A DNA stretch of 63,996 bases, filler included, from Chrysochromulina tobinii (taxonomy: Eukaryota), in NCBI GenBank assembly GCA_001275005.1. It is 6 parts of 6 records of this genome, joined end to end, with 100 filler letters (N's around TTAATTAATTAA, not from the genome) between each part and the next. Parts side by side here need not be neighbours in the genome. Positions count along the whole stretch, not along the records: positions 33,941 to 51,614 come from JWZX01001218.1; 5 more parts are not named here. One strand, given 5' to 3'. Under the pieces are notes generated by a model. It was not told where the DNA came from, made no database searches, and saw only the letters and a list, made by a program, of their open reading frames with translations. Within the stretch, counting starts at the first letter, position 1. Each line of letters begins with the position of its first letter. The translations under genes were made by a program, and so were the position numbers. Positions 11,761 to 51,714 of this stretch are shown piece after piece.

Positions 11761-11860
11761 NNNNNNNNNNNNNNNNNNNNNNNNNNNNNNNNNNNNNNNN
11801 NNNNTTAATTAATTAANNNNNNNNNNNNNNNNNNNNNNNNNNNNNNNNNNNNNNNNNNNN
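11761..11860. other. Artificial contig linker
   Basis: N-run with central TTAATTAATTAA (stops in six frames). Confidence 0.99.
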
Positions 11861-12744
11861 CCGACCCGACGCCTGTGCAGCTCGCCGCGCTGCGTCCCGG
11901 AGACACTCTCCTCATCGCACCGCCGCGTTCGAAGACCGACCAATTCGGAGAGATTCACTCCCCCTTTCCGTCCGCGATCGCCTACTCCCACGACCCGAAC
12001 AGCGCTGGTTACATCATACAGCAAATCGAGCTTTTGCGCCCGCTGCGCGGCCGCAGCCGAGAGAGCACGCCGCTATTTGCTGATGAGACCGGGCTGCCGT
12101 ACACGCACAACGCAATGGACACGCTCCTGCACGCCGCCCTGGTGCGGCTCTACGGCGAGCAGGTCGCGTCGTGCTACTCCTGGCACTCGCTGCGCTCCGG
12201 CCTCGCCACCGCCCTCAAAGCCGCTGGCTGCGAAGACAGCGTCATCCAAATGATATGTCGATGGGCAAACCCTGAATCGCTCAAAGTGTACGCTCGACAC
12301 GGCACGTCACTACACATCAACTGGGTGGATCGCGCCGAAAAAGCCGTCATCGACGCCATCTTGTCATCCAGCGTGCCAAAAGTGTGCAACAGCGAAGGCA
12401 ACATAGCCCTGCAACACCACTTTGGTGGCACCGTCCCAGCGCGTGCTCGGCACGTGCTCGACAATGCCGACAGAGACGCGGGCGACGCAACGGCAGCGCC
12501 TCCGGCGCCCCCTGATGCCTCGCCACTAACCCGCACCAACGCCGTCGGGCGCCGGGTGCGAGTGCCTGCCACTTGCTGGCCGACCTATACATGCACCGAG
12601 CACGCAGGATCAGGCTGGACAGCTCACATCCTATCTCTGCAACGAGCAAACGCTGTAACCCTGCGCTTCGCCGAAGCTACGGACGACCGCGGCCTGCCAT
12701 TTGCAGATGTCCAGCTCGACCTGGGAGCCCTGATCCCCTTCTGA
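11861..12744 (+). CDS. Tyrosine recombinase, C-terminal part (DIRS/Ngaro- or Crypton-like element), 5' truncated by contig edge
   Basis: RSKTDQFG (catalytic K), WHSLRSG (HxxR), CRW, LKVYAR (catalytic Y). Confidence 0.88.
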
Positions 12745-13028
12745 TCTCAGATTCACGTCACAGACGGACCGTCACCGTCACAACCTCCGTCACAAACCTC
12801 CGTCATACCTCCGTCACAAAGGCAGCCGCCATGAAACGCCAAGAGCGCTGAGAAAGGCTGCCCCGACGACGGAACTACAATCAACAGATCTCAAATTCAC
12901 GTCACCGACGACCGTCACCGTCAAAACCTCCGTCACAAACCTCCGTCTTACCTCCGTCACCAGGCAGCCGCCATGAAACGCCAAGAGCGCTGAGAATGGC
13001 TGCCCCGACGACGGAACTCCAATCAACA
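12743..13028 (+). repeat. Two tandem ~143-bp units downstream of the recombinase (probable element 3' region)
   Basis: GATCTCA.ATTCACGTCAC...GACGACGGAACT.CAATCAACA occurs twice with few differences. Confidence 0.9.
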
Positions 13029-15637: not shown

Positions 15638-17191
15638 TCATTTACCGCGCAAAATTGTGTGTAAGTTTGCGTCACGGCTCTTGATGCTCTTGCGGTTGCG
15701 CTTGGCCTTCGCCTTGCCCGTCAACATCTGCTTCGACCATCGCGCCGCGTACTCCGCGAGTGTGACCTTCTCCAGCTCCAACCGCCGCTTCTCGAATGCG
15801 TTAGCCTCCTCTTGTAGCCTCTCGAGTACTGGCGCTCCTGCCGCTCGGTGCGAGCAAGGCGAGGTCTGCAGAATCTCTGCAGAACGTGCGCTGAGCGCGG
15901 GTGCGGGCCCCGCTGCCGCAACAGCCTCTGCCACAAACCTCTCGGGCAGTCCGAGCGACGCGCGAAACTCTTGGAGGCAGCTTGCGTGTGCGAGCGCATT
16001 GGAAAACGTGGTGCCTCCTGGTAGGCGTGCTTTGTGCTCCTCGGCAGCGTCGGCGGTGAAGGCGGCGTCGTCGCTGGCCGCAGAGGTTCGACGCCATGCG
16101 TTCAGTCTCGCGTCTCCGAAGGGCTCGAGACCATGCTGCTCCTTGGAGCCCTGCGGCAGTGGGTCGGTCATGCCGAGCACGAGGATACCGCCAGGCGCGA
16201 GCCGTTGGACAATCTTGCCGAGCGCGACGCTCGCGTCCGCCCCGTTGCTGTAGAGAAAGATCGAGTAGCGGCAAAGGACGAGATCAAACTGGGATGGCGC
16301 CGCGCCGGCACCGCAACAAACGTGCTCCGCCACGGCCGTCGTGTCCTCCACACCGAATGAGCAGCTGGCTCGGCCGCCATCGGAGAGTGTGAAACGCTTC
16401 GGCAGCAGCCCACCATCGAAGGAACCAGGGTCCGCAGTCGAAGGGGTAAGACAAGAATTCGGCATCGGCTGGTAGCGCCGGCCAGCCATAAATGGCTTTG
16501 CACAGCTTTTCGGTATAGTCGGCGCCCACTCCGGATTCATCGCGACCTCGTGGAAGAAGGCGTCGCGCAGCTCGATGGGCACGTTGGCGAGAGCGGCCTC
16601 GCTCCACTCGTACCGGAGGTCCTGCACGGTTTTCACGATCGTAGCGTCGCGGTCGGTGCCATAGCCGACGAATTCGGGCGCATGCTCGCCAAAGGTCGGC
16701 GCGACCCACTTCTGGTAGACCATGCGCGCCGTGAAGAGCTCCTCGCCGCTCGAACAACCGCAGCTCCAGACGCGTAGGCGTGCGGCCGAAGAAGCGGACG
16801 TGTCATTCTGGCGGAGGGTGGACCTTGCTGCTGCGAAGAGCGCCCGGTTGGCAATCAGACCATCCCACAGACCCGCCCCATCTCGGAAGAAGGCAGTGTT
16901 GTGGATCCACGCCCGCTGCGTGATGTTGAACGTCGAGCTGCCCGTCGGAGAGACGTACCTTCGCACAGCGCTCGACGACACCGGTCGCGTCGTCGCCGGT
17001 TGCGGAGTGGCTATTGACGCTGCTGTCCCTTTCAAGATACCGCCCTGCACTTCTGGCAGCAGCGTCGGTGAGCGTGATGGCTGCGACAGCAGCAGCTGTA
17101 GCCTCTGCTTTGGCTTCGGCGGCGTGGCTGGCGTCTTTGTTTTGGTTGATGACGACGAATTGGGCGGTGAGCTGATGGATAGGTCCAGCAT
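15638..17191 (-). CDS. CheR-type SAM-dependent methyltransferase
   Basis: HNTAFFRD, LRVWSCGCSSGEE, GTDRD, FDLVLCRY..LY and LAPGGILVLG match CheR motifs in order. Confidence 0.85.
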   Translation of the reverse strand: MLDLSISSPPNSSSSTKTKTPATPPKPKQRLQLLLSQPSRSPTLLPEVQGGILKGTAASIATPQPATTRPVSSSAVRRYVSPTGSSTFNITQRAWIHNTAFFRDGAGLWDGLIANRALFAAARSTLRQNDTSASSAARLRVWSCGCSSGEELFTARMVYQKWVAPTFGEHAPEFVGYGTDRDATIVKTVQDLRYEWSEAALANVPIELRDAFFHEVAMNPEWAPTIPKSCAKPFMAGRRYQPMPNSCLTPSTADPGSFDGGLLPKRFTLSDGGRASCSFGVEDTTAVAEHVCCGAGAAPSQFDLVLCRYSIFLYSNGADASVALGKIVQRLAPGGILVLGMTDPLPQGSKEQHGLEPFGDARLNAWRRTSAASDDAAFTADAAEEHKARLPGGTTFSNALAHASCLQEFRASLGLPERFVAEAVAAAGPAPALSARSAEILQTSPCSHRAAGAPVLERLQEEANAFEKRRLELEKVTLAEYAARWSKQMLTGKAKAKRNRKSIKSRDANLHTILRGK

Positions 17192-17450
17192 TGGGCCTCC
17201 TGCCTCGCGCAACGCGACGACCTACAGAGTCCCAAATATGGACGTTTGAACTCGGTGAAACAGATCCTCAATTTCGAAACCAAACAAACACTCTCCACCA
17301 AGGGACACCAAACAGAAATCCACTGTTGCAGGGTCCTATTTTTGCGAAAAACGTATGTAGGGGAGTGACGGGAGCGAGCCGGACATCGCGGTAAGTGCGA
17401 AGTGCGACGACTTCGCGAAAACGATTTTGGCCTCAGGACTCCTCGGAGGC

Positions 17451-35910: not shown

Positions 35911-38043
35911 TTACATTTTCCTGGAACCGCCCATCATGAGGATAGATTTCGCCTCCTTCGCCTCGTTCATGGCTGCCTGTGCCGCGAGCACCGCGCCATC
36001 GCTCGCCGCATCCAAGCCCGCCGCTGCCGCCGCCGCCATCGCCTCTTTGAGCGCAGCGCCCGCCGCGGCCACCCGGGCGGTGGCCGCCTTGACCTCCTCT
36101 GGGCTCGCCTTCTTCTTCGTGGTGGACTGAGCGGGGGGCTCAGCCGAAACGTCCGAAAGGTCGACTGCGCTGCCGACCCGAGACGGCGCTGCCGACCCGA
36201 GGCTGTCGGGATCGGTGCACGTTGTCGCGAGAGACGCGGAGCTAGCGTTGCGCGACTTCGCGAGTGATGAGACGGAGCTGCTGCTCTCGTTCTTACTCAA
36301 CCTCTTCTCGACCATCCTCAACGTCACCATGAGCGGCGTGATCCTGTATCCGCCCACCATCGCCTCGCCGATCGAATCGAGCGACGCCTGCAGCGCAATC
36401 GATTCTGGCTCTGTCAGCGCAACGATGGCGGCCTTTGCCGCCATCGCGTCCTTTTTGAACGCCAGGCCGAGCGCGGCAAAGTCAAACTTGACAACAAGCT
36501 CGAGCTGCGGCGCCGCCTCCGCCTTCGCCTCCGCCGCAGCATCCGCATCCGATGGCGTTTCTTCGATGTTAAGCCCAGCCAAGCCGACCAGCGCGCACTC
36601 GACAGCCGCCTTGCGCGGCAAGGTGGGGATCGTCGTGCGCCCTAGGACCTCGCGCGCGTACAGGTTGGCATTCGTCACAATGTCCGGCTTGCTCCACTTG
36701 AGTGCTTTGCGCTGCCCATTCATCGCCACGATCCATGCGCGGTACGTCTGCGTGGCCACCTCGTCATCTACGCGCGCCGCCGCCGCTCGAACCGCTCGCA
36801 TCTCCTCCACACTCCCGAGGTTGTCGGAGGCCATATGCTCGATGGGCAGGCCCTTGAGTGTCGAGAGGAAGCTCTTTTCGTACTCGCAGAGCAAGAGGAT
36901 GGCTGCGCCCGACGCCCCAGCGCGGCCTGTACGCCCGATGCGTTGCACGTAGACATCGCGTGACGCGGGAGATCCAACTTGAAGGACGAGCGTGACATCG
37001 GGGTAGTCGACGCCGCGCGCCGACACGTCCGAGGACAGCAGCACCTGCTTCGTGTGCTTGCGGAAGGTGTCGGAGGCGTACGAGCGCTCGGTCGCCGTGC
37101 GTCGCGAGTGGATCTCGAGGACGGCGATCCCCATCTCCACTAGGCAGAGCGTCGAGAACTGCACCTGGCGGGCTGTCGGCAGGAAGGCCATGACCTTGTA
37201 CGTGTCGGGGTGGCTGGCCATCTCCTCGCGGATCAGCGCGTACAGCGCCACCATAGAGCGATCGAGCGGATGAACGAGCACCCGCTGCACAATCTGGGAG
37301 TGCGCGTCGGCCGTCACCTCGCCCACACAGTCGACGACGACGTGGTCGGGCCGGAGAGCCAGCCCCAGAACGGCGAGCATCTTCTCGGGGACCGTCGCCG
37401 AGAAGCAGAGCGTCTGTCGTCCGGCCGGGAGCGCGCTGATGATCTCCTCGATGTCACGCTGGAATCCGCCGTCGAGCAGCATGTCGCACTCATCGAGGAT
37501 GAGCACCTCGACACCGGCGAGCCGCGCGGCGAAGCTTGACGTGGAGTGCAGGTGCTCGATGAGCCGGCCGGGCGTTGCGACCATTACGTCGACAACGCCA
37601 CCGTACTGCGCCGAGAAGCGCTCGGCGATGCTCGGGTCGAGCCGCTCGCGCTGCGGCGTAACACTCGATGCACCCATGATCGTCTCGACGTTGTACTGTG
37701 GCAGCGAGGCGGCAAGCTTTTCGGCCTGCGTGACGATCTGCGTGCCGAGCTCGCGCGCACTGCTCAGCACGAGCGCGCGCACCGGGTCGACGCCGCTAGG
37801 CAAGGGCCGACGGGAGTTGCTCCGTGCAAGCCGCTCGAAGGTGGGCAGAAGGAAGGCAAAGGTCTTTCCGGTGCCAGTCTTGGCCTTTGCGAGCACGTCG
37901 GAGCCGGCGAGGCAGTGGGGCAGACATTCGGATTGGATCGGAGTCAGCTCCTTAACGCCCGCATCAGCGAGGGCTCGCACGAGCTCCTCGCGAATACCCG
38001 GCGCGGCAAGCGCGAGGGTCGGCATCGCGCGGTCTCGTTTCAT
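35911..38043 (-). CDS. DEAD-box RNA helicase (MSS116/DDX18-like clade) with C-terminal extension
   Basis: TPIQ Q-motif, AKTGTGKT, TPGR, DECD, SAT, ARGVD, QRIGRTGR. Confidence 0.92.
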   Translation of the reverse strand: MKRDRAMPTLALAAPGIREELVRALADAGVKELTPIQSECLPHCLAGSDVLAKAKTGTGKTFAFLLPTFERLARSNSRRPLPSGVDPVRALVLSSARELGTQIVTQAEKLAASLPQYNVETIMGASSVTPQRERLDPSIAERFSAQYGGVVDVMVATPGRLIEHLHSTSSFAARLAGVEVLILDECDMLLDGGFQRDIEEIISALPAGRQTLCFSATVPEKMLAVLGLALRPDHVVVDCVGEVTADAHSQIVQRVLVHPLDRSMVALYALIREEMASHPDTYKVMAFLPTARQVQFSTLCLVEMGIAVLEIHSRRTATERSYASDTFRKHTKQVLLSSDVSARGVDYPDVTLVLQVGSPASRDVYVQRIGRTGRAGASGAAILLLCEYEKSFLSTLKGLPIEHMASDNLGSVEEMRAVRAAAARVDDEVATQTYRAWIVAMNGQRKALKWSKPDIVTNANLYAREVLGRTTIPTLPRKAAVECALVGLAGLNIEETPSDADAAAEAKAEAAPQLELVVKFDFAALGLAFKKDAMAAKAAIVALTEPESIALQASLDSIGEAMVGGYRITPLMVTLRMVEKRLSKNESSSSVSSLAKSRNASSASLATTCTDPDSLGSAAPSRVGSAVDLSDVSAEPPAQSTTKKKASPEEVKAATARVAAAGAALKEAMAAAAAAGLDAASDGAVLAAQAAMNEAKEAKSILMMGGSRKM

Positions 38044-38047
38044 GTTA

Positions 38048-38133
38048 GAGACGAGTTCGTTTGTGAGACTTCGCAGTTCGTCACTTCCTTTTCCGAGACT
38101 TGAGTTCGAACACTTCCGATTCTGAGACTTCGC
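38048..38133 (+). repeat. Left TIR of the MULE
   Basis: Reverse complement of 51403-51488. Confidence 0.96.
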
Positions 38134-38139
38134 AGTTCG

Positions 38140-38825
38140 ACCACTACCGTTTGTGAGAGTTCACGGTTCTCCAGTTCCCGGTTTTGTTTGTGAGACTTTG
38201 GCTATTACCGTTTGTGAGACTTGAGTTCATTCGGCCATTACCGTTTGTGAGACTTTAGTTCCTTCGCAGTTCCGTTTGTGAGACTTCGCGGTTCCGTTTG
38301 TGAGACTTCGCAGTTCCGTTTGTGAGACTTCGCAGTTCCGTTTGTGAGACTTGAGTTCCTTCGGCCATTACCGTTTGTGAGACTTTAGTTCCTTCGCAGT
38401 TCCGTTTGTGAGACTTCACGGTTCCGTTTGTGAGACTTCACGGTTCCGTTTGTGAGACTTCGCAGTTCCGTTTGTGAGACTTCGGCCATTACCGTTTGTG
38501 AGACTTTAGTTCCTTCGCGCGTCCGATTCTGAGACTTCGCGGTTCCGTTTGTGAGACTTCGCAGTTCCGTTTGTGAGACTTCGCGGTTCCGTTTGTGAGA
38601 CTTCGCGGTTCCGTTTGTGAGACTTCGCAGTTCCGTTTGTGAGACTTCACGGTTCCGTTTGTGAGACTTCGCAGTTCCGTTTGTGAGACTTCACGGTTCC
38701 GTTTGTGAGACTTCACGGTTCCGTTTGTGAGACTTCACGGTTCCGTTTGTGAGACTTCACGGTTCCGTTTGTGAGACTTCGCGGACCGTTTGTGAGACTT
38801 CGCGGACCGTTTGTGAGACTTCACG
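38140..38825 (+). repeat. Left subterminal array (core CCGTTTGTGAGACTT, mostly 22-bp units)
   Basis: GGTTCCGTTTGTGAGACTTCAC-type units repeated more than 20 times. Confidence 0.96.
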
Positions 38826-39387
38826 GTAGCCAGCGAAGTGGCCAACCTCGAGAGAGAGATGAAGTTGTGCTTGTAGCCTAGGCGGCGGGGTTCGGCGGCT
38901 TCAGAAGGGCACAGAGATGGCGCCCGATGTCCTCCCACGGCTTTCCCACGGCCAGGGTGCTGATGAGGCCTCAGTGTTGAACCACTCTTCTTTCGCTCAG
39001 AGGAGCTCACCACATCAAGCGAGCCGCCGTTCTGGAGATTCATTGGCCACTGCCCCCCCTTAGCACAGTCGACCCCTCTCGGACTTCCTTACAGAAGTAG
39101 CGAGGGAGCCTTGCCATCCGAAGACGACTCGCTAATGACGGATGGGATGGACCGATTTCCCAGCGGCTCTCCGATGCAGCTGAAGAGGGTGACACGAGAG
39201 ACTAGGATCAAGCACGATCGCTCACGCGGGGAAGCTGGGGAGTCCTTGGGACGACATTCTGGCAGCCTTCTTCCACCCAGCCCCCCTTCCCCCCCTGGCA
39301 CGTTCCGCATCTGCAACGAGGGGGATGGGATAAGGCCGTCAGAACCAGCAGGTATGGTCTCGCCAACACACGCAGCGCATACCTCAA

Positions 39388-41193
39388 TCAAAACGGAAAT
39401 GTCAAAAGCGCACCGTCGATGTCCACAGGCCTTGGGATCACAGGAGAATCTAAGAAGCCGTGCACGCGCCAATTCTCACTGTCGACCTCGTCACCTGCAT
39501 GTCCAAAATCTCCACGAAAGAGGATCATGTCCCCTTCCTCAAAGATTGCAATCTCGTGTTTATCAGTGTCGAATGGCCATCCGTGTAGCCTAGTGTGATC
39601 TTGGAGCGCCAAGACAAACGCGAGAGGTACATCTTCAGGTGGCTGATTCCGCAAAGAGTTCCGATCCGCTGAATCAGCGTGGCGTGGTTGGTGTTCCTTG
39701 CGCTTGTTCGATCGAGGAAGGCTTCTCAACCCACACAGAACCGAGAGCTGTTTCTCACCTTGGGAGCACGAAAGGTAGCCAAGCGCACGGAATTTGGCTG
39801 TCAGTTGAGGGCCTACCTCTTCCGTCCAGCTTTGGTGGCCCACGGTGTGCAGTCTCTTGCCATCTGCTACCAGCTTTCCCCCACGCACGTCGTTGAATAT
39901 GGTTTCACACTTGCTTGTTCGGATTTGTCTCTTCATGTGCTCTGGGAGCTTCAACACGTCTTTTATTATGACAAATCCGCGCCTGTGCAGTGGGTTCTGG
40001 CGCATCAGCCAGGTATTTGCACGGGCTTGCAAGCGCTTGTCAAAGTAGTCAGATCGGATGGTTGCCTGCATTTCCGCACTCTCTTTCGACACTCGATCCA
40101 CAAACCCCTCCATCATGCGCAAATTGTATGAGACAACGTGCAGTCCGTCCACTTTCCCTGTGTCTTGCGAGTCCACTGCATTTCCGAGGACGTCCGCGTG
40201 CACGGTGCCATGTAAGCTTTGGTTGTAGTTGCTAACAAGAACGCAAATGAGGTCCTCATGCAGCACTGGGATCGAGACCCCTCGTCCACCCGTGGCAGAT
40301 TCGAAGATGGCGAATTCACGCCATTGAACAGGGTGCTGCTCATCTCCACCCAAGAACAGGATGGCACCGCCGAAGTCGCCTCCCCCATCCATCTTGTCCA
40401 CGTGCAAATCCGCCGCACTGGCATCCGGACGGTCACGCGACATATGACCTCGAACCACCACCTGTTGTGATGGGAATGTCACACCTCCTGGGGGTGCACG
40501 TGGATATTGGCACGTGTTCCTCCACACGTCCTCGTCGCTTTCAGCTCCGTCGAACACACACCAGCTTGCCATGTCGGGAAACAGTGCAGTCAGACACACG
40601 GCCAGGGTACCATTCAGAGAACTCAAAATTGGTTCGATTTCGTCGCTCCTGGATCCCGGTGATCTAGAAAACGGAATGTTCGTCGACCGGCCATCCAGCA
40701 CCACGGAATGTCGCTTCCTTCCAGGCAAAATGCCATGGCCCAGACTGATGTACTGGCCCGCTGCAGGCTGGATCGACGTGGAGTTCACATCCCCTTCTTG
40801 CTTCCCCGCCCAGATTCGTAGCTGATCCACGAGATTCTTTGTCGTCCCTTCTCCAAGGCCATTCATCTTGTCCACTGCGGTGTGCCTGACCCATGCGACA
40901 CGCGCCACAGCCTTGCCGTTTTCCGTTGTTATCTTCGCACCGTGCATGCTTTCTTCGTGAAGAAGAGGTAATGGCACCCGATCCAGAACGAGTCCACCTT
41001 GCGCGGACCTCAGGATTGGATTCCCATTGGACTTTGCAGACGCATGATCTGGATGGGAATGGTGAGATAGGGAGGCTATCACCTCGCCTTTATCTAGCAA
41101 AGCGCCAGACACGTGGAGGCGCACTCCCTCGCCCCTAATCACGTGCTCGGAGATGTCTGCACGCAAGTTCTCACCGGCACGGGTCTTGACTAG
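39388..41193 (-). CDS. Tandem dioxygenase ORF: TET/JBP-like domain + second 2OG-Fe(II) (PhyH-like) domain, in frame with the transposase
   Basis: Domain 1: LHVDKMD...SLHGT...HVVSY. Domain 2: RRGFVII...QPRHAD...GDMILFRGDFGHAG...NWRVH. Confidence 0.75.
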   Translation of the reverse strand, partial: LVKTRAGENLRADISEHVIRGEGVRLHVSGALLDKGEVIASLSHHSHPDHASAKSNGNPILRSAQGGLVLDRVPLPLLHEESMHGAKITTENGKAVARVAWVRHTAVDKMNGLGEGTTKNLVDQLRIWAGKQEGDVNSTSIQPAAGQYISLGHGILPGRKRHSVVLDGRSTNIPFSRSPGSRSDEIEPILSSLNGTLAVCLTALFPDMASWCVFDGAESDEDVWRNTCQYPRAPPGGVTFPSQQVVVRGHMSRDRPDASAADLHVDKMDGGGDFGGAILFLGGDEQHPVQWREFAIFESATGGRGVSIPVLHEDLICVLVSNYNQSLHGTVHADVLGNAVDSQDTGKVDGLHVVSYNLRMMEGFVDRVSKESAEMQATIRSDYFDKRLQARANTWLMRQNPLHRRGFVIIKDVLKLPEHMKRQIRTSKCETIFNDVRGGKLVADGKRLHTVGHQSWTEEVGPQLTAKFRALGYLSCSQGEKQLSVLCGLRSLPRSNKRKEHQPRHADSADRNSLRNQPPEDVPLAFVLALQDHTRLHGWPFDTDKHEIAIFEEGDMILFRGDFGHAGDEVDSENWRVHGFLDSPVIPRPVDIDGALLTFPF

Positions 41194-44100
41194 TCACCTT
41201 TCTCCGAGGTGAGATATTGTTGCTAAGCCAGGGAAAAATGCCTTCCAAAACACTGGTACGGGGAAGTGCATGAGGTGGTTAGGGAGGTAGCCAGCGAAGT
41301 GGCCATTGCCATTGTATTCCACGACAATATACAAGCCATTTGGTTGCCTGGACTTCAGGAAGGTTTCGAGGGTGTCCAACGGGTGGAAGACCTCACTGCA
41401 TTCCGCGTCGCCGTTGTACACCACGAATTGTTTCGGTGATGTTAAGTCCAAGACGAAGATAGGTACGTTGAGGAGATTCGCTAGCACTCCAAAAGTGCCA
41501 TCACTTCCCCCCCAAGTACCGTTCTGCGTGTCCGAGGCACACTTCAAGCCCAAGATCATCTTGACGTTTCGCTCCTGTGCCTGCCCGTCATTCATGAGCA
41601 CCTTGTTACGCTCCAGCACGTGAGTCTGCATGGCACGTAGAAGGATGCTCGACATTCTGTAATCACGCGCCGTTGGGGTCTTCTCAGGTTGTGTTTTCTG
41701 AAGGACTCGGACTGGGTTGGCGTGATCCAACGTGCCGGCGTAGCCAGCCATAACAGCGTACAGCCAGCAAGAGCCATTCCCTTTGACGGTCACACGGGTG
41801 CCGATGAGGTCCTTGGGTACCTTGTCCAATTGAGCCCGAGTCGCTTGAATGCCCTTGGCAACGTCCTCTTTCGACTTTTGAGCTCCTTGGTGTGAATAGT
41901 ACCTCTCAAGCTCCATTTTCCGCCACGCTTCGACAGCATCTTTAGACCATTGCGAGGAGAGCAAGTGCTCATCGATCTCCGTTGCCGCAGCGATCTCACT
42001 ATCAATCGCCATTCTTTCCAAGTGCTCGGTCGTGAGATACATCTCCCATGCCTTCCTGTCCTTGACGCTCATTGTCAAGACATCGACGAAGCTCTCCTTC
42101 CTGGCTCTTTTGGGGGAGGACTCGGCCGATACGTCATTCAAGAGGGCTGATGTTGAGGCATAAGATGCCCGCGCAAACTCCGCCACGTCTGCTGCGCCAT
42201 CCACGGAGAAGCCCACTTTCTCCCAGAATGCCTTCGACTCCGCCTTGCATCCTCCGAGGTTGACGCGGATCTTGGTGTTGGGCTCCAATATGAATAGGAG
42301 GGTACATAGTTGAAAGACAAGCAACGCGCCATTTCCTTTCGCCCCGGACGCGCAACAGCGGACGATCTCGAGGATCACGGCCTTCTCCCTGGCATGTTTC
42401 CTTTGCATCCGTCTCAACAGCATGACACCATCACATGCGTCACCGCGCTTTCGTACGAAGTAGAACGTGTTGTCTTTCGCCGGCGACGTGTGCATGATTG
42501 TCCAAAAAGAGGACAGTGTGGAATTCGGCTGGAACGGAGAGGTTTCATCGAGAGGCACCAGATCTTGAATTGGTAGAGCTGGATCGAGTTCTTGGGCGCC
42601 ACGCATCAAGAGGCAGCCCTTCTCGGATCCATCCAGCTCATAACGCAGGGAAAAGGACCATGGGCATTGCTGATGAGGGTCGGGTCCTATGACGAAGAAG
42701 GAGCTCAATCGACCATCAGGCTTCATTCTCCAAGCTTTTTCCAGAACTGCAGGTGCTGGTGGGTCTTGTGCCTTGATGTCAGACATTGAGGCACCCTGCA
42801 AAAAATTCGTCTGTGAGTCATGGGTTGCCGAGCCACCTGTGTTAGAGGCACCTGACTCCCGCTCCGTTTCTCGCCTCTTCCAAGCTGCTACCGCTTCATC
42901 GTGTTTTACGCAATGACGACTCCATCTTTGAATGTCCTTATCAAAACGGGCTTGAGCATCGTCATCCCGATAGTGCCCGTAGTGACCACGCGTGGGATAC
43001 TTTGGCCTTTCGTCTGCCTTCGAGGGACGCAAGTACTTGTAGTGTTCTCCGTCGTACAAGACATGAATCGAGGGGTTTGCATACGTGAGCTTGGAGGTAG
43101 AGGCATACCGTTCCGGCTCCGTTCGAGTTCCGTCGTGCACGACTAGGTCAACCTCGAGGGCCAAAGCGGTGAGAAGAATGCCTTCTTCGGACACCCATTC
43201 ATCAGCTACGGCCATCTGGGCTCTGAACCATTCCATGGCTTCTTCCGTACTTTGGCCGTCTCGGCGATGCAAGTTCTCAGCAATGACATGTTTGTGATCT
43301 GGGAGTTTACCTACGACAAAGTCCCTGTACTTCGCGTGCTGATGCTCGTCGAATTCAAAGTGTAAAGCCAAGCACCGGAAAAAGCATGCCCCATCACCGA
43401 CGACGTCGAAAACTTCGTACCCAGCTTCGGTTAGGGATCTTTCGAACGCCGCAACTTCCGCCTCCGAGGCATTCTTGCGTCTCGCGTGATCATCCCATTT
43501 CGCGACCTCTGGACCCAGTTCATTCTCGACATTTTGCTCACGCAAGGCCCTGCGAAGCTGTGCAACAAGGTCTTTTTTGAGGAGCTTCGGAGTTAAGCCC
43601 ATTGCGCGGAGGTACGATTGAATAGCTTTGACGGTCATGCTCTGGATTGAGTCTGCCTCCAAAGGAGGGAGGGTTGATCTCGGTAACACTGATGCGGGTA
43701 CCTGAGCAACGACCTCAAGGTTTGCCTCGTCCGTCTCGGCCAGCGGGGCGCCATTCTCATCCACCGTCACTTCCATGTTGACTTCCTCGCCGTCCGCCAC
43801 CTCCTCATCCATCTCATCCATACCTTCCACCTCTTCCTGTGCTCCAGGTGCCTCTTCCGCCCCAGCCTCGTCCGCCTCTTCTTCTTCCTGTGCTCCTGCC
43901 TCATCCGCCTCTGCCACTTCCTCTTCCTGTGCTGATGCGTCTTCCTCTTCCTGTGCTGCTGCCTCATCCTCCTCTTCCGAGGCTCCTGCCGACTCTGCCG
44001 CCTCTGCCTCTTCCTCTTTTTCCGGTGCTGCGATGACATCATCCACTGTCTTCCGTAGCCACTCTCTGTCGTAATGTGACCCCTGCTTCACACCGAGCTC

Positions 44101-47100
44101 CGTCTCAAGCTGCGCCTTCAACTTTTTCATGGAAACCACGTTGAGGTCGACATCCTTGATGTATCGATTCACCCAGATCTTTATCGACTCTAGCGTCGAC
44201 GCGTTGTGCGGCACTGAGTCTTGGATCCCTAAACCTTCAACACGTTTGTCAAAGGGGGCAACCGAATTGTTGTTTGCTGGAAGACGACCATCTTCTGGAT
44301 ACCGTTGTGACGCAGATGTGGCGGCTTCTTCGGCGCCCTCGACGCTTGAGTAGTGCGCGTGAGGACTCATTGACGGCTCCTCGAAGGCGACTTGCTCTGC
44401 TTCAACAGTGGGACCAGCTGCGAACGTCGTAGCATCTGACTCGCTAATGACTGATGCCGCTGTTTCCCGTGCTGCTGCCTCTTCTACCTTCTCGGGTTCC
44501 TCAAGCGAAACACTTTCCATCTGACCGGGCTGCTTGTTACGCTCGTCGTCCACATTGACGAAGAATGCATTGACGATGGCCTCACGGTCAATCATCTGCC
44601 GAGGCGCAGCAAGTGTCGGTGCAACAGAGGCTACCTCGAGGTCTCGTGAAGGGCACTTATCCCGACGATGTTCACTCGACTTGCAAAAGCTGCACGTCTT
44701 GGACGTGCCCTTTCCACCTGGATTGTAACCTTGTCCGCCTGTGGCCGCATAGTGTCCAAGGACCGTCTGGGCCTTGGTTGCTGAATGAACGTCTTCGATG
44801 ATGCTCTTGAGTCGCCGCTTTTCATTTGCAAGCTGCTTGAGGATCGATGGACGTCCTTTTGGAGCGGGCCGGATTTCCGGTTGAGTAGCCTGCAGGAACT
44901 GAGATGTCGCATGGCAAGATACCAAACCGCGGATGATTTCCTGGCCCCCAGGGACACAGAAGTCTGGCCCAACTTGACGTTCCCAAGTGTCTGCGCGGCA
45001 CCAGTACGGGACCCAAGCGCGCCAGTCAGTATTGATAGCTCTGAAGAGCGCCTCCGTTTCCTTGCACCACAAGTTGCTGAAGCCTCCCTTGCCACACGAG
45101 CACAACTTATGAAACTGCCGGGTATGGAAGCAGTTCAGGTCGACCACATGGACAATCTCTCTGTTGAGCGTCACTCTCCACACCTTATCATTGTTCTCGT
45201 CCACCTTGTGAACACGGAGGAGGTCCTGTACCTTCGCTCTCAGAGCAGTATGTTCCTTGAACACCGGCTCCGTGATGGAATCCTGTGGCCAAGTGTCCTC
45301 TGGCCTGAGCAGCGCCGCTGTTTGCCTAAAATTCTGCATCGCTTTCAGATGCTGGACCTTGCTTCGCAAGTCGTCACGGCGGCGTTTGAGAATGGCCACA
45401 GTAGCGAGCAACGAGTTGCAGAGCTCCTTTTGCTTCCGCGTCTCTGCAAACATGTGGTTCGAGACTTCAGCGAAGTTGTTGGTCTTGACGCCGAACAACG
45501 ACCCATGGAGGTACGCCTGACAGATTTGTTCACGAGGAATCTTGCGAAGCGGGCTACGTTCCGGGAGTTTCGCGAAAAGTTCATCAGCTTCTTGAACTCG
45601 TCCGAAGGGCACTTGCAAGAGCTCTTCGTATATTTGCAGGCTCAACTTGCATCGTTTCCGCAACTCCTCCTTCATGTGGTGCATGCACCGAAATAAGCTG
45701 GTGGAGGGATGCATGGCGTTCTGCACGCCCATGAGCGCTGGCCCGCCATCGGTGATTGTGACTCTTCCGGGCGCGTCCAAAGGCGAATTCGTAGTCAACC
45801 CAGGTGACGACGATTGCCTCAAGAGCACATTCTCCGCCGTCATGTGCGCGTTCAGTGCTGCATTGCACTCTGACGTAAGCAGGACACTGATCGAAATGGG
45901 ATGCACGTTCTCGTTGGCGTCCTTTGTTGCCCGTATGAACATCGTACCAGCTGCATCATCTCTCATGGCTGCCCCATCGATCGCATCAACAGGAATGAAG
46001 TTCAGAAGATTGTCGTACATCATGTTCTTTGGGATCAGAGTCCAGCCAATGACATACTTGTTAGAGTGGTCCTCGTCCTCGGTGTACTTGGAGATGACTG
46101 TCGTCAGATTGTCAGGATTGAAGGGAACGGACTTAGCGACCGGGTCCTTCGCTTGCCATGCTCTGTACTGATTCTTCGCTATGTCCACGATCATGGTGGC
46201 GACGGTGGACGCACTCACCATGTGGAATGCGACTCCGAATCCTTGCTCACCGAGATTGTGAGCCAAGCCATGCAGCAAGCTGACGTTGAAGGCTGGGGAA
46301 AGGATGCTGGGTGCCTTCAACTCCCTAAGCACGGCGAACGCCATTCTTCTGTTGGCTGCGGAATCGAGCCGCTGCATTTCTTCGAAGACGTCGTCCACGC
46401 TCCACGGCGATTTCGAAGCGTCGAATCTGGACTTAAGAACGCTGACGTGGTGCGATGCTTTGACACGTCGGCCACCGCAACCTGCTGGAACTAACGAGAG
46501 AGCTCCCGCCGAACTTGGTATGGTCGATGTGCTCCCTGTGTTGGATGCCGCACAGCTCGCACAGCTCGGAGGCGGTATTGGAGGCGGTATTGGAGTTGCC
46601 AAGCACGTATGGGGTTTGTAGAGAGTGCACACCCAGACGAGGTTGTCATCAGGCACATCCGAGTACAACGAGGGAAGCTGCGGAAGACTGATTCTGGTCG
46701 TTGGGTTAGACTCAGTACCCAGTCCGTAGAAAAATTTCGTCCAGGAGGTCGGTTTGTAAGCCCCCCTCCGCAACTGTCCCATCTTAATCAGCTGCGCCTG
46801 AACGATGCAGTGGCATCCCTCGTGATTGAAGAAGTCTTTGGCACGGCTGCCGTTTTCTTTTTTCGCCTTCTTCTCCTCTGACGCGGAGCCTCCCTCTGAC
46901 TCCGGATTGACTCCCGACGCTTTGTCTCGCACAGCATCCATTGATTTGCAGACATAAACTTTGCAGGTAGGCGCTGTGCCACCCAGGGGACGTAGCGCTG
47001 CCGGGCTTTTTGAACGTATGATAAGGTCTACCACTTTTCCTCCTGGTTGCCCCGTGAAATCCAGCACGCTGCCGTATTGGAGTTCCGCGTTTGCGCCCTG

Positions 47101-47766
47101 TTGAAGACCTGCTTGGATGGCATCTTGTTCGGTATTTGCCGCCTCGGCCCGGCTCGCATGGCGTGAGATTTGCATGGCCTCCTCCAACATCGACGATGTT
47201 GTCATGTACGCAGCTTCTTCATTACGGTCCTTTTGAAGTTGCTTTACGAGAACCTGAATAGTGTCTGGTAAGCACGTGAGAGGTGCCGCCTCGACGTGTT
47301 CCAAGACTGAAGCGTGAGTGACCTTGATCTTCTCCCTGATAGCACAATGAAAAACTTCGGACGAGCTTATGATGTCTTCTGTGGCGCTCGCAGCAACATC
47401 TTTCTCACGATTGTGGACCATAGACTCGTCCTCGGCAACCTGGAGATCATGCATCGGCGTGCTGAGGGGCTCGACGCCGTCAAGAGGAACATCGAGATCA
47501 ACTTGAAGATTCGTTATGAGGTGGATTGACCACGCTGATTTGGATCTTCGATAGGGAGTCTTCGACGCCGAATGTTCTTGAATACCATCTGGTACAGTAG
47601 GAGGAGCAGCTGGTCGCTGAAAAGCATCAGAGCCGGTATCGACCAAATCAGAGGTCTTGCGAGCCTTGCCACCATGTCCTTCATGCCCAGCACGACTAGG
47701 ATGAGACGGAGGATTTGCGGCTGGAGTCGTAGAAGATGAACTAGCGCCTCCGGGATTGTTGGTCAC
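41194..47766 (-). CDS. Multidomain MULE transposase (DDE, SWIM-like, Zn knuckle, DEK-C, SAP, OTU, GNAT-like, OTU)
   Basis: AIDG...TKDAN...ITDGG...RCMHH...TNNFAE; CSCG..WCKE; CSFCKSSEHRRDKC; DLNVVSMKKLKAQLETELG; MTVKAIQSYLRAMGL..KKDLVAQL; GDGACFFR...EHY; KGNGALLV...FWEKVGF; GNGSCWLYA...GHF. Confidence 0.9.
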   Translation of the reverse strand: MTNNPGGASSSSTTPAANPPSHPSRAGHEGHGGKARKTSDLVDTGSDAFQRPAAPPTVPDGIQEHSASKTPYRRSKSAWSIHLITNLQVDLDVPLDGVEPLSTPMHDLQVAEDESMVHNREKDVAASATEDIISSSEVFHCAIREKIKVTHASVLEHVEAAPLTCLPDTIQVLVKQLQKDRNEEAAYMTTSSMLEEAMQISRHASRAEAANTEQDAIQAGLQQGANAELQYGSVLDFTGQPGGKVVDLIIRSKSPAALRPLGGTAPTCKVYVCKSMDAVRDKASGVNPESEGGSASEEKKAKKENGSRAKDFFNHEGCHCIVQAQLIKMGQLRRGAYKPTSWTKFFYGLGTESNPTTRISLPQLPSLYSDVPDDNLVWVCTLYKPHTCLATPIPPPIPPPSCASCAASNTGSTSTIPSSAGALSLVPAGCGGRRVKASHHVSVLKSRFDASKSPWSVDDVFEEMQRLDSAANRRMAFAVLRELKAPSILSPAFNVSLLHGLAHNLGEQGFGVAFHMVSASTVATMIVDIAKNQYRAWQAKDPVAKSVPFNPDNLTTVISKYTEDEDHSNKYVIGWTLIPKNMMYDNLLNFIPVDAIDGAAMRDDAAGTMFIRATKDANENVHPISISVLLTSECNAALNAHMTAENVLLRQSSSPGLTTNSPLDAPGRVTITDGGPALMGVQNAMHPSTSLFRCMHHMKEELRKRCKLSLQIYEELLQVPFGRVQEADELFAKLPERSPLRKIPREQICQAYLHGSLFGVKTNNFAEVSNHMFAETRKQKELCNSLLATVAILKRRRDDLRSKVQHLKAMQNFRQTAALLRPEDTWPQDSITEPVFKEHTALRAKVQDLLRVHKVDENNDKVWRVTLNREIVHVVDLNCFHTRQFHKLCSCGKGGFSNLWCKETEALFRAINTDWRAWVPYWCRADTWERQVGPDFCVPGGQEIIRGLVSCHATSQFLQATQPEIRPAPKGRPSILKQLANEKRRLKSIIEDVHSATKAQTVLGHYAATGGQGYNPGGKGTSKTCSFCKSSEHRRDKCPSRDLEVASVAPTLAAPRQMIDREAIVNAFFVNVDDERNKQPGQMESVSLEEPEKVEEAAARETAASVISESDATTFAAGPTVEAEQVAFEEPSMSPHAHYSSVEGAEEAATSASQRYPEDGRLPANNNSVAPFDKRVEGLGIQDSVPHNASTLESIKIWVNRYIKDVDLNVVSMKKLKAQLETELGVKQGSHYDREWLRKTVDDVIAAPEKEEEAEAAESAGASEEEDEAAAQEEEDASAQEEEVAEADEAGAQEEEEADEAGAEEAPGAQEEVEGMDEMDEEVADGEEVNMEVTVDENGAPLAETDEANLEVVAQVPASVLPRSTLPPLEADSIQSMTVKAIQSYLRAMGLTPKLLKKDLVAQLRRALREQNVENELGPEVAKWDDHARRKNASEAEVAAFERSLTEAGYEVFDVVGDGACFFRCLALHFEFDEHQHAKYRDFVVGKLPDHKHVIAENLHRRDGQSTEEAMEWFRAQMAVADEWVSEEGILLTALALEVDLVVHDGTRTEPERYASTSKLTYANPSIHVLYDGEHYKYLRPSKADERPKYPTRGHYGHYRDDDAQARFDKDIQRWSRHCVKHDEAVAAWKRRETERESGASNTGGSATHDSQTNFLQGASMSDIKAQDPPAPAVLEKAWRMKPDGRLSSFFVIGPDPHQQCPWSFSLRYELDGSEKGCLLMRGAQELDPALPIQDLVPLDETSPFQPNSTLSSFWTIMHTSPAKDNTFYFVRKRGDACDGVMLLRRMQRKHAREKAVILEIVRCCASGAKGNGALLVFQLCTLLFILEPNTKIRVNLGGCKAESKAFWEKVGFSVDGAADVAEFARASYASTSALLNDVSAESSPKRARKESFVDVLTMSVKDRKAWEMYLTTEHLERMAIDSEIAAATEIDEHLLSSQWSKDAVEAWRKMELERYYSHQGAQKSKEDVAKGIQATRAQLDKVPKDLIGTRVTVKGNGSCWLYAVMAGYAGTLDHANPVRVLQKTQPEKTPTARDYRMSSILLRAMQTHVLERNKVLMNDGQAQERNVKMILGLKCASDTQNGTWGGSDGTFGVLANLLNVPIFVLDLTSPKQFVVYNGDAECSEVFHPLDTLETFLKSRQPNGLYIVVEYNGNGHFAGYLPNHLMHFPVPVFWKAFFPGLATISHLGER

Positions 47767-48491
47767 CGGCCCTGTCCTCTGTGCCAGTCATTCACGAGGT
47801 CGTCGTAGTTATAAGGCACGCCTGGTCCTCTGCCAATCCTCTTAGACGCCGAATGCTCTTGAATACCATGTGCTACAGTAGGAGGAGGAGCTGGTCGATG
47901 AAATGCATAAGAGCCCGTATCGACCCCATCAGAGGTTATGCGTGCCTGACCGCCACGTCCTTCATGCGCAGCATGACTAGGTTGAGACGGAGGTTTTGCA
48001 GCAGGAATAGAAGATGAACTAGCGCCACCGGGATTGTTGGTCACCTGCCCTCGTGCATCCCAATCCTTCAGGAGTTCGGCGTCGGTAACAGACACGCCTG
48101 GTCCTCTGCCAGCTCGGGGTGCCTGATAGAGCTCCCATGCAGCCTTGACGGTGAAAGCCTTGTCAACGCCATCCGAGTACTGCATGAGACCGGTTGTCAC
48201 GTTGGTACGACTCCATCCGGGGGGCAAACGTTCCGCCGACGAGGATGGAATGGCTGCACCGAGCGTGTTTTCCTCCTCCGTGCGACTGCATTCTGGACGA
48301 GGACCATGTACCCCGGCTCCTCCAGGAGCACCAGCAAGAACTGCGCCTGGAGATGCACAGTTTGGTTGCGCTGGAGAGGAGGACAAACATCGAGGAAGAG
48401 GCATTGACAGCGAAGACGATGATGACATCGATGCGGACGACGCCGTACCTGCTTGATCCGGTGCTCTGTTGCTCTTCTTTCTCCCCATCAT
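47763..48491 (-). CDS. Probable N-terminal part of the transposase gene (out of frame by intron or frameshift)
   Basis: ATG 48491; contains a diverged duplicate of the first ~70 aa of the transposase ORF, which itself starts with GTG. Confidence 0.5.
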   Translation of the reverse strand: MMGRKKSNRAPDQAGTASSASMSSSSSLSMPLPRCLSSSPAQPNCASPGAVLAGAPGGAGVHGPRPECSRTEEENTLGAAIPSSSAERLPPGWSRTNVTTGLMQYSDGVDKAFTVKAAWELYQAPRAGRGPGVSVTDAELLKDWDARGQVTNNPGGASSSSIPAAKPPSQPSHAAHEGRGGQARITSDGVDTGSYAFHRPAPPPTVAHGIQEHSASKRIGRGPGVPYNYDDLVNDWHRGQGR

Positions 48492-48759
48492 GCAGGCTTG
48501 CGCGCGCACCCAACCCGTCACCGACTTTTCTGCGCGGCGTCTCAAAACGAACTGGCAAGTCTCACAAACGGAACCACGCACGAACTCAAGTCTCGCAAAC
48601 GGAACTCAAGTTTCGCAAGTCTCACATACGGAACCACGCACTATAAGGCAAGTCTCGCAAACGGTGCAAGTAACTTTCGAACATAAGTTTCTCTACAACC
48701 TTGTCGCGCAGGCGAAACACTCAAAGCAAACTTCCTGTGAACCAACGTGTTGTGTTAAC

Positions 48760-49270
48760 ATGAAGAAACGCGCGTACAGAGAGTTCCACGCGTTCATGAA
48801 CACCATTGCGTCGCGACAAGATGCGCGCGCGCGCACAGCCAGGATGGCCTCTGCGCCGGTGACAAGATCCGCAGCCAGGATGGCCTCTGCGCCAGGACGT
48901 GAAGCTTGTGGCGACGCCTCAGAGTTCATCACAATCGAAGTGATTATGGAGGATGGCCGACCCGGCGAGAAAGTGACCCGTGCGCGGCATCGCCATGAAA
49001 CCATCCCTGGGACCCGCAATGGTTGCCGTCCCACCAAGCTGACCACATAGAGAGCCTATGTGCGGTGTGCACTCAGACATAAGATGCAAGCGCACGACGA
49101 CTTTCGAAAAGCTGATTTTGGCCTACAAAAGGCTCCACCGCGACGTGAGCCGAGGCTCGTTGTACTTTCAGTACGACGGCCAAGAGCTAGTTCCAAGACA
49201 GACCCCGGATGATTTCAAGATGCAGGACGGCGCGGTCGTTTGCGCGCTTCGCGTGATCTCCGTCGAATAG
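48760..49270 (+). CDS. SUMO-like (Rad60-SLD type) protein without C-terminal GG, 2 exons
   Basis: Intron 48980-49076 (GTGCGC...GCTGAC...CTCAG) gives FITIEVIMEDGRPGEKVTHIRCKRTTTFEKLILAY...FQYDGQEL..QTPDDFKMQDGAVV. Confidence 0.8.
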
Positions 49271-50294
49271 GTCAGAGTGTGTACACGGGTTGCATCTTTG
49301 GGGAATGCGTGAGTCTGTGGTACTTGTGTTCCTACCTGTCAACGCCGTCCGAGTACTGCTGGAGTCGTTGCACGATGTCACGACGGCGAGACATGGTGGT
49401 GACGGCGGCGCGACGGTGACGAGTCTGCCATGCTGTGGATACACTCAATTTGGTATTGTATAGCGCTGTGAGGGCGGCAGCGACGGAGGTGTTGGTGAAG
49501 GGAGGTCTGCGCGCGGTAGCGAGAGAGTGGAGAGTATCTGGTGAGATGTGATATGATTGTTCATTCAATTATTGAGGTGATTTTCTCACACCACTGTCCT
49601 TTTTAGGACAAGACAAACCTTTTCCCTTCAGCAGGGAACCCTTTTCTCGGCCCCTAAAATGCTAGTAACCATTGGCGCCGCGCTCGAGCTATGCACGTCG
49701 CTGCGCGCAGATGCGCCACCCTGCTGCTGCATCGTACGCTGCGCGCAGATGCGCTTGAGATGCGTCCGTAGTGATGCGTAAACAACCCCGTTTTGATGCG
49801 GTGGTCGGGCGATCAACTCTCTACTGCCACCAAGCGTGTCTGCAGGTAATCCCTCTCAGATTCCGTTTCATGAGACCTGGCTTCTGCTGCATCGTACAGG
49901 TAGCCAAGCGCAAATCTGGAACACACCAGCCAATCAGACTGCGCAGGTCAGGCTTCATTCATCTGCGAAGAACGCCAAGAGGGAAATGTCAAGAGTCTAC
50001 CGTATGCAAGTTGCATAAGCAGGTGTGGTCTCAGCCTCAACAAGCATGGTCCTCAAGGCGCACATGTTCCTGATGCGTGCCAGCGCTGCAGAAGGCGTAC
50101 AGGAATCGCATCCGCAAGTGTCTTCGGTGATGCTGCACCAGACCCGAACATCGCTCACTCTTAGCCGCACCAGACCCTAACAATACACATGATGCCCATG
50201 TGAAGTAGTGACACTGTAAAACCTGAGGATGCGCCCTGCGGATACGCGGCGAGGATCACAGAGACAAGCTCTTTAATTCCGTCTGGTCGGTGAA

Positions 50295-50864
50295 TCACGA
50301 GAGCAAATAAGAAGGTAACATGGATGGATCAGGCTTAAAGACGTATTGAAGCCAAGCATCCGCAGGCAAAGAGCACAGAAAGTCACGATAACGGCAAACT
50401 TGAGTCACGCACTGAAATTCACTGCTGCTGTCTTCGTCTTGAAGTTGAAGTAGTTTGCTGTGTAAAGCAACCACTTGTAACGCTGCCCTTTCAGCTTCAA
50501 GATCGGAATCATCGACTAGTGATCTCAGGGTGCCACATCGATTTGCAAGGAGTAAATCACCGAACGTCATTGAGGTCGGTATGCAACTGATAACCACCAT
50601 GTGCTCAGAGGGAATAAAGATGTCGCGCAAGAAGCAAAACAGGAAGACGTGCCAAGCGCCTTGCTCCTTATCAAAATCCAAAACCCAGCCATGGACTGCG
50701 GTTACGTGCGCCAGGAATTCGCTTTCGGCGTGCGTTGACGCTCTCCCAACACCGAGCGGGCTGCACAACAACGACAACGTCGTTGCGTCGGATGCAGGTC
50801 GGACACGAACCAGTGATCCTTGGGAAGCGAGAGCATCACCAACCACGGGCCATGCGATCGACAT
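50295..50864 (-). CDS. Hypothetical MULE cargo protein (may continue by splicing to ~49815)
   Basis: 189-aa ATG ORF next to the right array; a downstream Cys-containing open segment has plausible GT-AG sites. Confidence 0.45.
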   Translation of the reverse strand: MSIAWPVVGDALASQGSLVRVRPASDATTLSLLCSPLGVGRASTHAESEFLAHVTAVHGWVLDFDKEQGAWHVFLFCFLRDIFIPSEHMVVISCIPTSMTFGDLLLANRCGTLRSLVDDSDLEAERAALQVVALHSKLLQLQDEDSSSEFQCVTQVCRYRDFLCSLPADAWLQYVFKPDPSMLPSYLLS

Positions 50865-50874
50865 GTCACGAACA

Positions 50875-51400
50875 ACTCAAGTCGAACTCAAGTCTCACAA
50901 ACGGTAGTGGCCGAAGGGAACTCAAGTCTCACAAACGGTAGTGGTCGAACTCAAGTCTCACAAACGGTAGTGGTCGAACTCAAGTCTCACAAACGGTAGT
51001 GGTCGAACTCAAGTCTCACAAACGGTAGTGGCCGAAGGGGACTCAAGTCTCACGAACGGTAGTGGCCGAAGGGGACTAAAGTCTCACAAACGGTAGTGTC
51101 AAACTCAAGTCTCACAAACGGTGGTAGTCGAACTAAAGTCTCACAAACGGTAGAGGCCGAAGGGGACTAAAGTCTCACAAACGGTAGTGGTCGAACTCAA
51201 GTCACACAAACGGTAGAGGCCGAAGAAACTCAAGTCTCACAAACGGTAGTGGTCGAACTCAAGTCTCACAAACGGTAGTGGCCGAAGAAACTCAAGTCTC
51301 ACAAACGGTAGTGGTCGAACTCAAGTCTCACAAACGGTAGTGGCCGAAGAAACTCAAGTCTCACAAACGGTAGTGGTCGAACTCAAGTCTCACAAACGGT
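50875..51400 (-). repeat. Right subterminal array (core AAGTCTCACAAACGG, ~29-34-bp units)
   Basis: GAACTCAAGTCTCACAAACGGTAGTGGTC-type units; core inverted relative to the left array. Confidence 0.96.
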
Positions 51401-51402
51401 CC

Positions 51403-51488
51403 GCGAAGTCTCAGAATCGGAAGTGTTCGAACTCAAGTCTCGGAAAAGGAAGTGACGAACTGCGAAGTCTCACAAACGAACTCGTCTC
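51403..51488 (-). repeat. Right TIR of the MULE
   Basis: Reverse complement of 38048-38133. Confidence 0.96.
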
Positions 51489-51614
51489 TTTTATGTTAAT
51501 ACACACAACACGTAAGCAGTACAGCCGTGTAAACTTGGTCGCGTGTTTGACTTGAATTGCTGTTCATCAGAGCTACACAAGCAGCCTGGTGAGCGCGACA
51601 ACCCGGTCCCTGCT

Positions 51615-51714
51615 NNNNNNNNNNNNNNNNNNNNNNNNNNNNNNNNNNNNNNNNNNNNTTAATTAATTAANNNNNNNNNNNNNNNNNNNNNNNNNNNNNN
51701 NNNNNNNNNNNNNN
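51615..51714. other. Artificial contig linker
   Basis: N-run with TTAATTAATTAA. Confidence 0.99.

Follow-up and report, generated by a model that had tools for sequence, protein, structure and literature searches.

The window analysed here, a stretch of 63,996 nucleotides (filler included) joined from records of the Chrysochromulina tobinii assembly GCA_001275005.1, contains a Mutator-like DNA transposon in which the open reading frame of the transposase (ORF1) is followed, with no gap and in the same frame, by a second open reading frame (ORF2) that codes for two predicted dioxygenase domains. The two frames are separated by a single TGA located in the context TGA-CTAG. Programmed UGA-CUAG readthrough is the best-supported reading of this arrangement, and we consider it probable.

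The junction between ORF1 and ORF2

On the minus strand the junction reads GAA AGG TGA CTA GTC AAG, as an earlier note on this DNA had described it, and two further figures of that note also hold: the frame, said to stay open for about 600 codons past the stop, runs for 601 (41193-39388), and the first ATG, placed about 80 codons downstream, is codon 83 in all copies. The fusion protein of approximately 2790 residues proposed there is correct as a stop-to-stop figure; however, the true start, ATG 48491, is off-frame in this copy, and the intact copy L003 gives 2267+1+601 = 2869 residues. TGA-CTAG accounts for 4 of the 2849 stop-like triplets of the window, and CTA followed by G represents 0.18% of the codons of the element; given this rarity, the context is unlike that of a random stop.

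Four close loci (L001-L004) were obtained from a single metagenome scan in which ORF2 alone was the query. L001 is 94% identical to the window copy, while L003 and L004 are approximately 90% identical to it and identical to each other over the coding region. When the stop codon was aligned across the copies, AGG TGA CTA GTC was found to be identical in L001, L003 and L004, with both frames intact, and the junction is kept in the three distinct copies that are not inverted at this point. The place where ORF1 ends is also conserved in more distant relatives. ORF1 ends 35 residues past the His motif of its second OTU domain (OTU2), in Arg; in the four closest of the distant ORF1 families (P0028, P0030, P0023 and P0083, 35-53% identical) the protein ends 33-36 residues past this motif, in all cases in Arg, and all 15 homologs from a profile search in which the His motif is kept end 26-36 residues past it (4 fragments ending before the motif were dropped).

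In the distant cluster P0067 (7 of the 331 proteins retrieved) the end of OTU2 leads into the TET domain with no intervening stop; therefore, a fused OTU-TET architecture occurs naturally. A second candidate for a natural fusion, P0220, with an SGNH domain before the TET homolog, was discarded as a one-off rearrangement because in P0294 this SGNH protein is followed by another tail. No longer fused homolog of ORF2 was present among 7865 candidates, which is weak evidence, and nothing was found of the junction DNA of distant relatives in the viral contigs or prokaryote genomes searched. Equal contig sizes suggest that ORF1 and ORF2 gene calls of distant relatives lie on common contigs in the pairs P0028/P0249 (15178), P0267/P0012 (9312) and P0323/P0222 (3380), and likewise P0324/P0239 (99407) and P0263/P0200 (10543); these pairs are a lead only, and one match may be due to chance.

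The ORF2 product

The first domain of ORF2 is predicted to adopt a TET-type double-stranded beta-helix fold with an N-terminal extension and, on the basis of this model, to be a TET-like 5-methylcytosine (5mC) dioxygenase. Most of the first 400 residues were modelled with a predicted local distance difference test (pLDDT) value above 90, and comparison of the model with TET2 gave a Z of 16.4 and a root-mean-square deviation of 3.6 with 262 residues aligned. The top 16 VIA-align rows correspond to TET2, NgTET1, CMD1 and CcTet (Z 12.4-16.4), with FTO/AlkB at 11.0 and lower. Sequence searches in Pfam and the PDB did not recognize ORF2, and the Atlas returned only leads under 0.9. The residues predicted to bind iron are kept among 27 aligned rows (H264 in 26, D266 in 25 and H328 in 24, the remainder being gaps). 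A nearly invariant Asp, five residues past the first His, is spaced like Asp350 of CMD1, which reads the 5mC base (PMC7854593).

The earlier note had described a dioxygenase ORF; a dioxygenase fold is indeed predicted, but ORF2 contains two dioxygenase domains and not one. Its last 207 residues were modelled as a PhyH-like dioxygenase (pLDDT 95), in which the HxD...H...R residues are invariant in 31 aligned sequences. The pairing of TET and PhyH-like domains was found elsewhere only in the P0004 family. The PhyH-like domain is a mobile module, with homologs fused to SET (P0027, P0091, P0093 and P0103), to ankyrin repeats or to a GNAT domain.

Codons 1-82 of ORF2, which precede the first ATG, are conserved, within the extent of each gene call, in 15 of the 16 close homologs, and the sixteenth starts at Met83. 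His45 is present in 26 of the 27 aligned rows, and the gene calls of P0005 (69%) and P0015 (44%) begin at codon 2 (K/C-T-R-x-G). Alignment of the model with TET2 begins at residue 1, whereas nearly all AlkB/FTO matches begin near residue 63-86. Since these 82 codons are conserved and form part of the TET fold they are probably translated, and translation must therefore enter ORF2 upstream of Met83. Purifying selection acts on ORF2: the ratio of nonsynonymous to synonymous substitution rates (dN/dS) is 0.28 versus L003 (dS 0.12) and 0.30 versus L001, and that of the transposase core is 0.26.

Readthrough and its proposed role

Readthrough would account at once for the exact frame, the absence of a gap, the rarity of the context and the lack of an ATG. 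Given that ORF2 lies in frame behind the stop and has no start of its own, the enzyme is likely to be made only on occasional readthrough. The interpretation put forward in the earlier note is retained in part, on evidence that is indirect: the rare context, the lack of an ATG before the TET-fold part, the conserved position of the stop and the stop-free P0067 proteins. According to this scheme, a single mRNA would be translated and most ribosomes would halt at the UGA, releasing the transposase (2267 residues in the intact copy), while a minority would pass UGA-CUAG and add the TET-like and PhyH-like dioxygenases to give the 2869-residue fusion. The transposase part would bring the TET domain to the repeated ends of the element, where it could oxidise 5mC and allow escape from silencing, and the leaky stop would keep the dioxygenase scarce. 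More tentatively, the element may be a cut-and-paste DNA transposon in which a retrovirus-style leaky stop yields limited amounts of a transposase-TET fusion, and this fusion would oxidise 5mC at the ends of the element itself; this would be a self-targeted, translationally metered anti-silencing system, in a family present across many aquatic metagenomes.

Several observations weigh against readthrough or the role proposed for it. TGA-CTAG was seen only in copies that are 90-94% identical, and at this similarity a run of seven unchanged bases is not notable. A terminal Arg or Lys is found in 12 of the 15 OTU2-ending proteins versus 17 of 131 other matches, and this excess would fit a phase-2 splice donor (AG/GT; slashes mark splice joints) as well as a conserved 5' context. 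RNA structure past the stop was not significant (z -1.43, -0.46 and -0.88), and none of the listed contigs from four of six RNA runs (X11, X12, X13 and X16) bridges the stop; these contigs match parts of ORF1, of ORF2 and of the 3' region, and their coverage of the element is thin. The length of the linker varies, that of P0004 being approximately 5 residues longer, and for codons 1-83 alone dN/dS values of 0.63, 0.52 and 0.27 were obtained, on few changes. Moreover, the canonical Arg that binds the C5 carboxylate of 2-oxoglutarate (TET2 Arg1896) is not evident in ORF2. By motif spacing its equivalent is Gly350, and residues 350-352 (40140-40146, minus strand) are Gly-Leu-His in the close TET group and x-x-Arg in distant members, with Arg at position 352 in 7 distant rows. 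Because an Arg is lacking at the position six residues ahead of the stacking aromatic, co-substrate use may differ from that of TET2.

Viral polyproteins are cut by proteases that free their products. By analogy, the OTU protease before the stop could cut the T-R-A-G linker and free the enzyme, with the TET domain using a non-standard co-substrate, a suggestion to which we give little credence.

Alternatives to readthrough

The main rival is splicing, which we regard as unlikely even when its two forms are taken together. In the first of them, an unlikely case in itself, CTAG/ would be a 3' splice site that connects a 5' exon to codon 2, so that the dioxygenase is made without the transposase body; comparable alternative splicing is known for Spm/En TnpA. 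TAG/ is a valid acceptor that would keep all conserved codons from 2 on, the gene calls of two families start at this codon, and a conserved, donor-like mini-ORF is located upstream (49394-49332, minus strand). However, the donor of this mini-ORF, being in phase 2, would bring codon 2 into the wrong frame, the sequence upstream of the acceptor is purine-rich and includes two intervening AGs, the in-frame stop of ORF1 four bases upstream would be a coincidence, and no splice joint was detected among the listed contigs of the four RNA runs, with their thin coverage. The mini-ORF itself has 20 codons and a good start context, ends in AG/GTAGGA (Arg and then a stop) and is also present in L003; its sequence is similar to part of the ORF1 N-terminus, and it may serve as a 5' exon or as an upstream open reading frame.

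In the second form, which we find improbable, AAG/GTGACT would be a 5' splice site and removal of a 63-nt intron (41197-41135) would eliminate the stop and create an in-frame fusion, controlled by intron retention. The sequence is donor-like, in-frame acceptors common to all three copies exist at 63 nt (TTAG/G, codon 20) and 249 nt, close homologs have Ser or Arg at codon 20, which is compatible with a kept AG, and the excess of terminal Arg/Lys would also agree. Nevertheless, this proposal of the earlier note is weakened, given that use of the nearest of these acceptors deletes codons 1-19, of which codons 10-19 are conserved: their mean BLOSUM score against close homologs is 2.5-3.3, versus 2.4-3.2 for codons 20-45, with conservative exchanges, and they are modelled as a confident strand. 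This argument rests on the close group, since the distant group aligns poorly in this region (-0.9 to +0.8). In addition, one RNA contig extends 8 nt past the acceptor and no loose end is listed, a weak indication, as the contig could derive from DNA.

A separate transcript for ORF2, arising from a promoter within ORF1 and translated from a non-AUG codon or from Met83, is decidedly improbable. Tca2 offers a precedent for an internal promoter (PMC2194720), and the 11 closest homologs all retain Met83; on the other hand, a start at Met83, which is absent in the 44-48% group, would lose the conserved His45 and the part aligned to the TET2 N-terminal region, the GTG at codon 18 is GTC in L003, and the rare CTAG would be left unexplained. 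The view of the earlier note that every route leads to a fusion protein is too strong, given that a CTAG/ acceptor or an internal promoter would yield a free dioxygenase.

Finally, the TGA could be a plain nonsense mutation (CGA to TGA in the earlier note), or a selenocysteine or recoded sense codon, in a once-continuous ORF, with ORF2 now decaying or always translated; the stop-free fusion of P0067 and, for the mutation, the other lesions of this copy speak in its favour, yet we consider it most improbable because the copies share the stop, ORF2 is under purifying selection between them, and relatives at 35-53% identity end at the same place. TGA is a stop in this element, as ORF2 itself ends in TGA at the C-terminus of its homologs, and no selenocysteine insertion sequence (SECIS) family of Rfam matched within 38000-42000, a weak test in which the sole Rfam match was due to chance.

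The element and its transposase

By its transposase type, inverted ends, target duplication and dispersed copies, the element belongs to the Mutator-like elements (MULE/MuDR), in which the target duplication is 9-11 bp long. The end of the element is common to L001, L002, L003 and L004, with flanks that differ in L003/L004; the different flanks of the window/L002 end, the L003/L004 end and a second L003 end reveal dispersed copies at different sites. This second end (L003:15408-15532) lies 2.6 kb past the 3' end of the first copy. A Kyakuja-Dileera-Zisupton (KDZ) TET transposon was considered and rejected, the transposase being MULE-like and no KDZ family of Pfam being matched. The insertion lies directly upstream of an ORF for a DEAD-box helicase (35911-38047), and the 3' copy of the target duplication overlaps an in-frame ATG. 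A run of N with a short linker (51615-51714) lies 130 nt outside the 5' end of the element. The coordinates of the features are collected in the table.

Features of the Mutator-like element, in positions of the window
Feature	Position	Strand	Remarks
Target-site duplication, 3' copy	38038..38047	+	10 bp; 9/10 identical to 51489-51498
Whole element	38048..51488	-	13,441 bp; terminal inverted repeats, each end starting GAGACGAGTTCG
3' subterminal array	38051..38829		repeats of 22-33 nt with the core GTTTGTGAGACTT; opposite in orientation to the 5' array
ORF2 domain 2, codons 395-601	39388..40011	-	PhyH-like 2-oxoglutarate-Fe(II) dioxygenase; ends in TGA
ORF2 domain 1, codons 1-400	39994..41193	-	TET/JBP-fold dioxygenase (model), H264-x-D266...H328; first ATG at codon 83 (40947)
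Segment with OTU2 and junction	41121..41841		721 nt; inverted at the same locus in L002 (L002:9278-9998) and in DNA runs X1, X4 and X8
Junction AGG TGA CTA G	41190..41199	-	stop at 41196-41194
ORF1 frame	41194..47787	-	2197 codons (47787-41197) plus TGA
OTU2, OTU-like cysteine protease	41197..41799	-	weak Pfam OTU match, E 0.034
MULE DDE transposase core and SWIM-like region	44908..46350	-	D-rich motif at residues 600-607, D680, CxxH 701-704, E774
281-nt-spaced duplication	47559..48017		47559-47736 and 47840-48017; absent from L003
True ORF1 N-terminus	47763..48491	-	ATG 48491, 242 codons; in another frame than the rest in this copy
Third, small repeat cluster	48530-48674		just upstream of ORF1
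ORF0, small	50295..50876	-	193 codons stop-to-stop, in the 5' end of the element; 90% identical in L003/L004
5' subterminal array	50881..51476		approximately 29 nt repeats
Target-site duplication, 5' copy	51489..51498	+	

The ORF1 product shows, in order, a MULE transposase, a SWIM-like region, a CCHC knuckle, DEK_C, an acidic tract, SAP, OTU1, a motif that we take to be GNAT-like, and OTU2. No direct match to Pfam MULE was obtained; the MULE identity comes from the best Atlas match (0.94, with 177 shared features, MULE being assigned to 76% of the members). The DDE and CxxH motifs are kept in the three full-length transposases compared, which include the relatives P0028 and P0267, as are the Cys and His motifs of OTU2; in two of the three the Cys of OTU1 is lost, and in two of the three the His of the SWIM-like region is replaced by Glu. 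An N-terminal LPPGW...AAWE motif, encoded within the true N-terminus, is also present in distant transposases; a proposed resemblance to MBD received no support from Pfam. ORF0 has no match in Pfam.

The copy in the window is damaged. The 281-nt-spaced duplication causes a frameshift that leaves the ORF1 N-terminus out of frame, and L003/L004 represent the intact copy. The inversion of the 721-nt segment, whose breakpoints show no repeat, truncates ORF1 at 1987 codons in L002 and removes the first 25 codons of ORF2; both of its joints were found at about single-copy depth in the three DNA runs examined.

Elsewhere in the window, an ORF with a weak tyrosine-recombinase match (11809-12744, plus strand, E 3.6e-06) adjoins a 142-nt tandem duplication (12743-13028), and the two are possibly another mobile element. 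A CheR-type methyltransferase domain (15638-17221, minus strand) is encoded in a eukaryote-like contig.

Comparison with known systems

The closest parallel for the cargo is that of the fungal DNA transposons that carry a TET/JBP gene, also cut-and-paste elements, for which escape from methylation silencing has been proposed (Kojima 2025, PMC12730594). Eleven such lineages are listed in the main text of that article, none of them MuDR/Mutator. Their TET domain usually starts with Met, and the words 'fusion', 'fused' and 'stop codon' do not appear in that main text; here, in contrast, the TET gene has no ATG at its beginning, lies in frame behind the transposase and is accompanied by a second dioxygenase. 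The plant VANDAL MuDR elements and the oomycete MuDR elements that carry SET (PMC12730594) are likewise Mutators with their own chromatin-modifying or anti-silencing cargo, but the cargo of the present element is an enzyme predicted to oxidise bases, and it is coupled to the frame of the transposase. The fold predicted here and the HxD...H iron triad are those of the TET2, NgTET1, CcTet and CMD1 structures, from which ORF2 differs by an identity of 7-14% and by its lack of the Arg mentioned above.

Readthrough at UGA-CUAG is well known in alphaviruses and in mammalian genes. The 7-nt signal is the same as here (cited in bioRxiv 10.1101/2022.12.06.519325), although no 3' stimulatory hairpin was detected in this element. 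UGA-CUAG is a context that promotes readthrough, and fission-yeast retrotransposons have conserved it at the boundary of gag and pol (bioRxiv 10.1101/2022.12.06.519325). The arrangement is similar to that of Tosmo1-3, Tcry1 and Tj1, described in the same work, and of Tca2 (PMC2194720), where one in-frame TGA followed by CT(A/G) separates two ORFs and the preceding codon is conserved. These gag-UGA-pol systems are long terminal repeat retroelements that dose Pol, whereas in this case a DNA transposon would dose an accessory DNA-modifying enzyme. In the open-access literature we found no report of readthrough or of a TET gene in a Mutator element.

Implications

The TET genes of fungal transposons are known as separate genes, and readthrough is known from retroelements and RNA viruses; if the present reading is real, this element joins both and provides a compact natural architecture for a DNA-targeted TET enzyme. 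It would also serve as a warning that gene callers truncate the N-terminus across this whole enzyme family. If real, the element would further offer a direct test of the proposal that the TET enzymes of transposons erase the silencing of the element that encodes them, because a change in one codon would turn the enzyme off or fully on.

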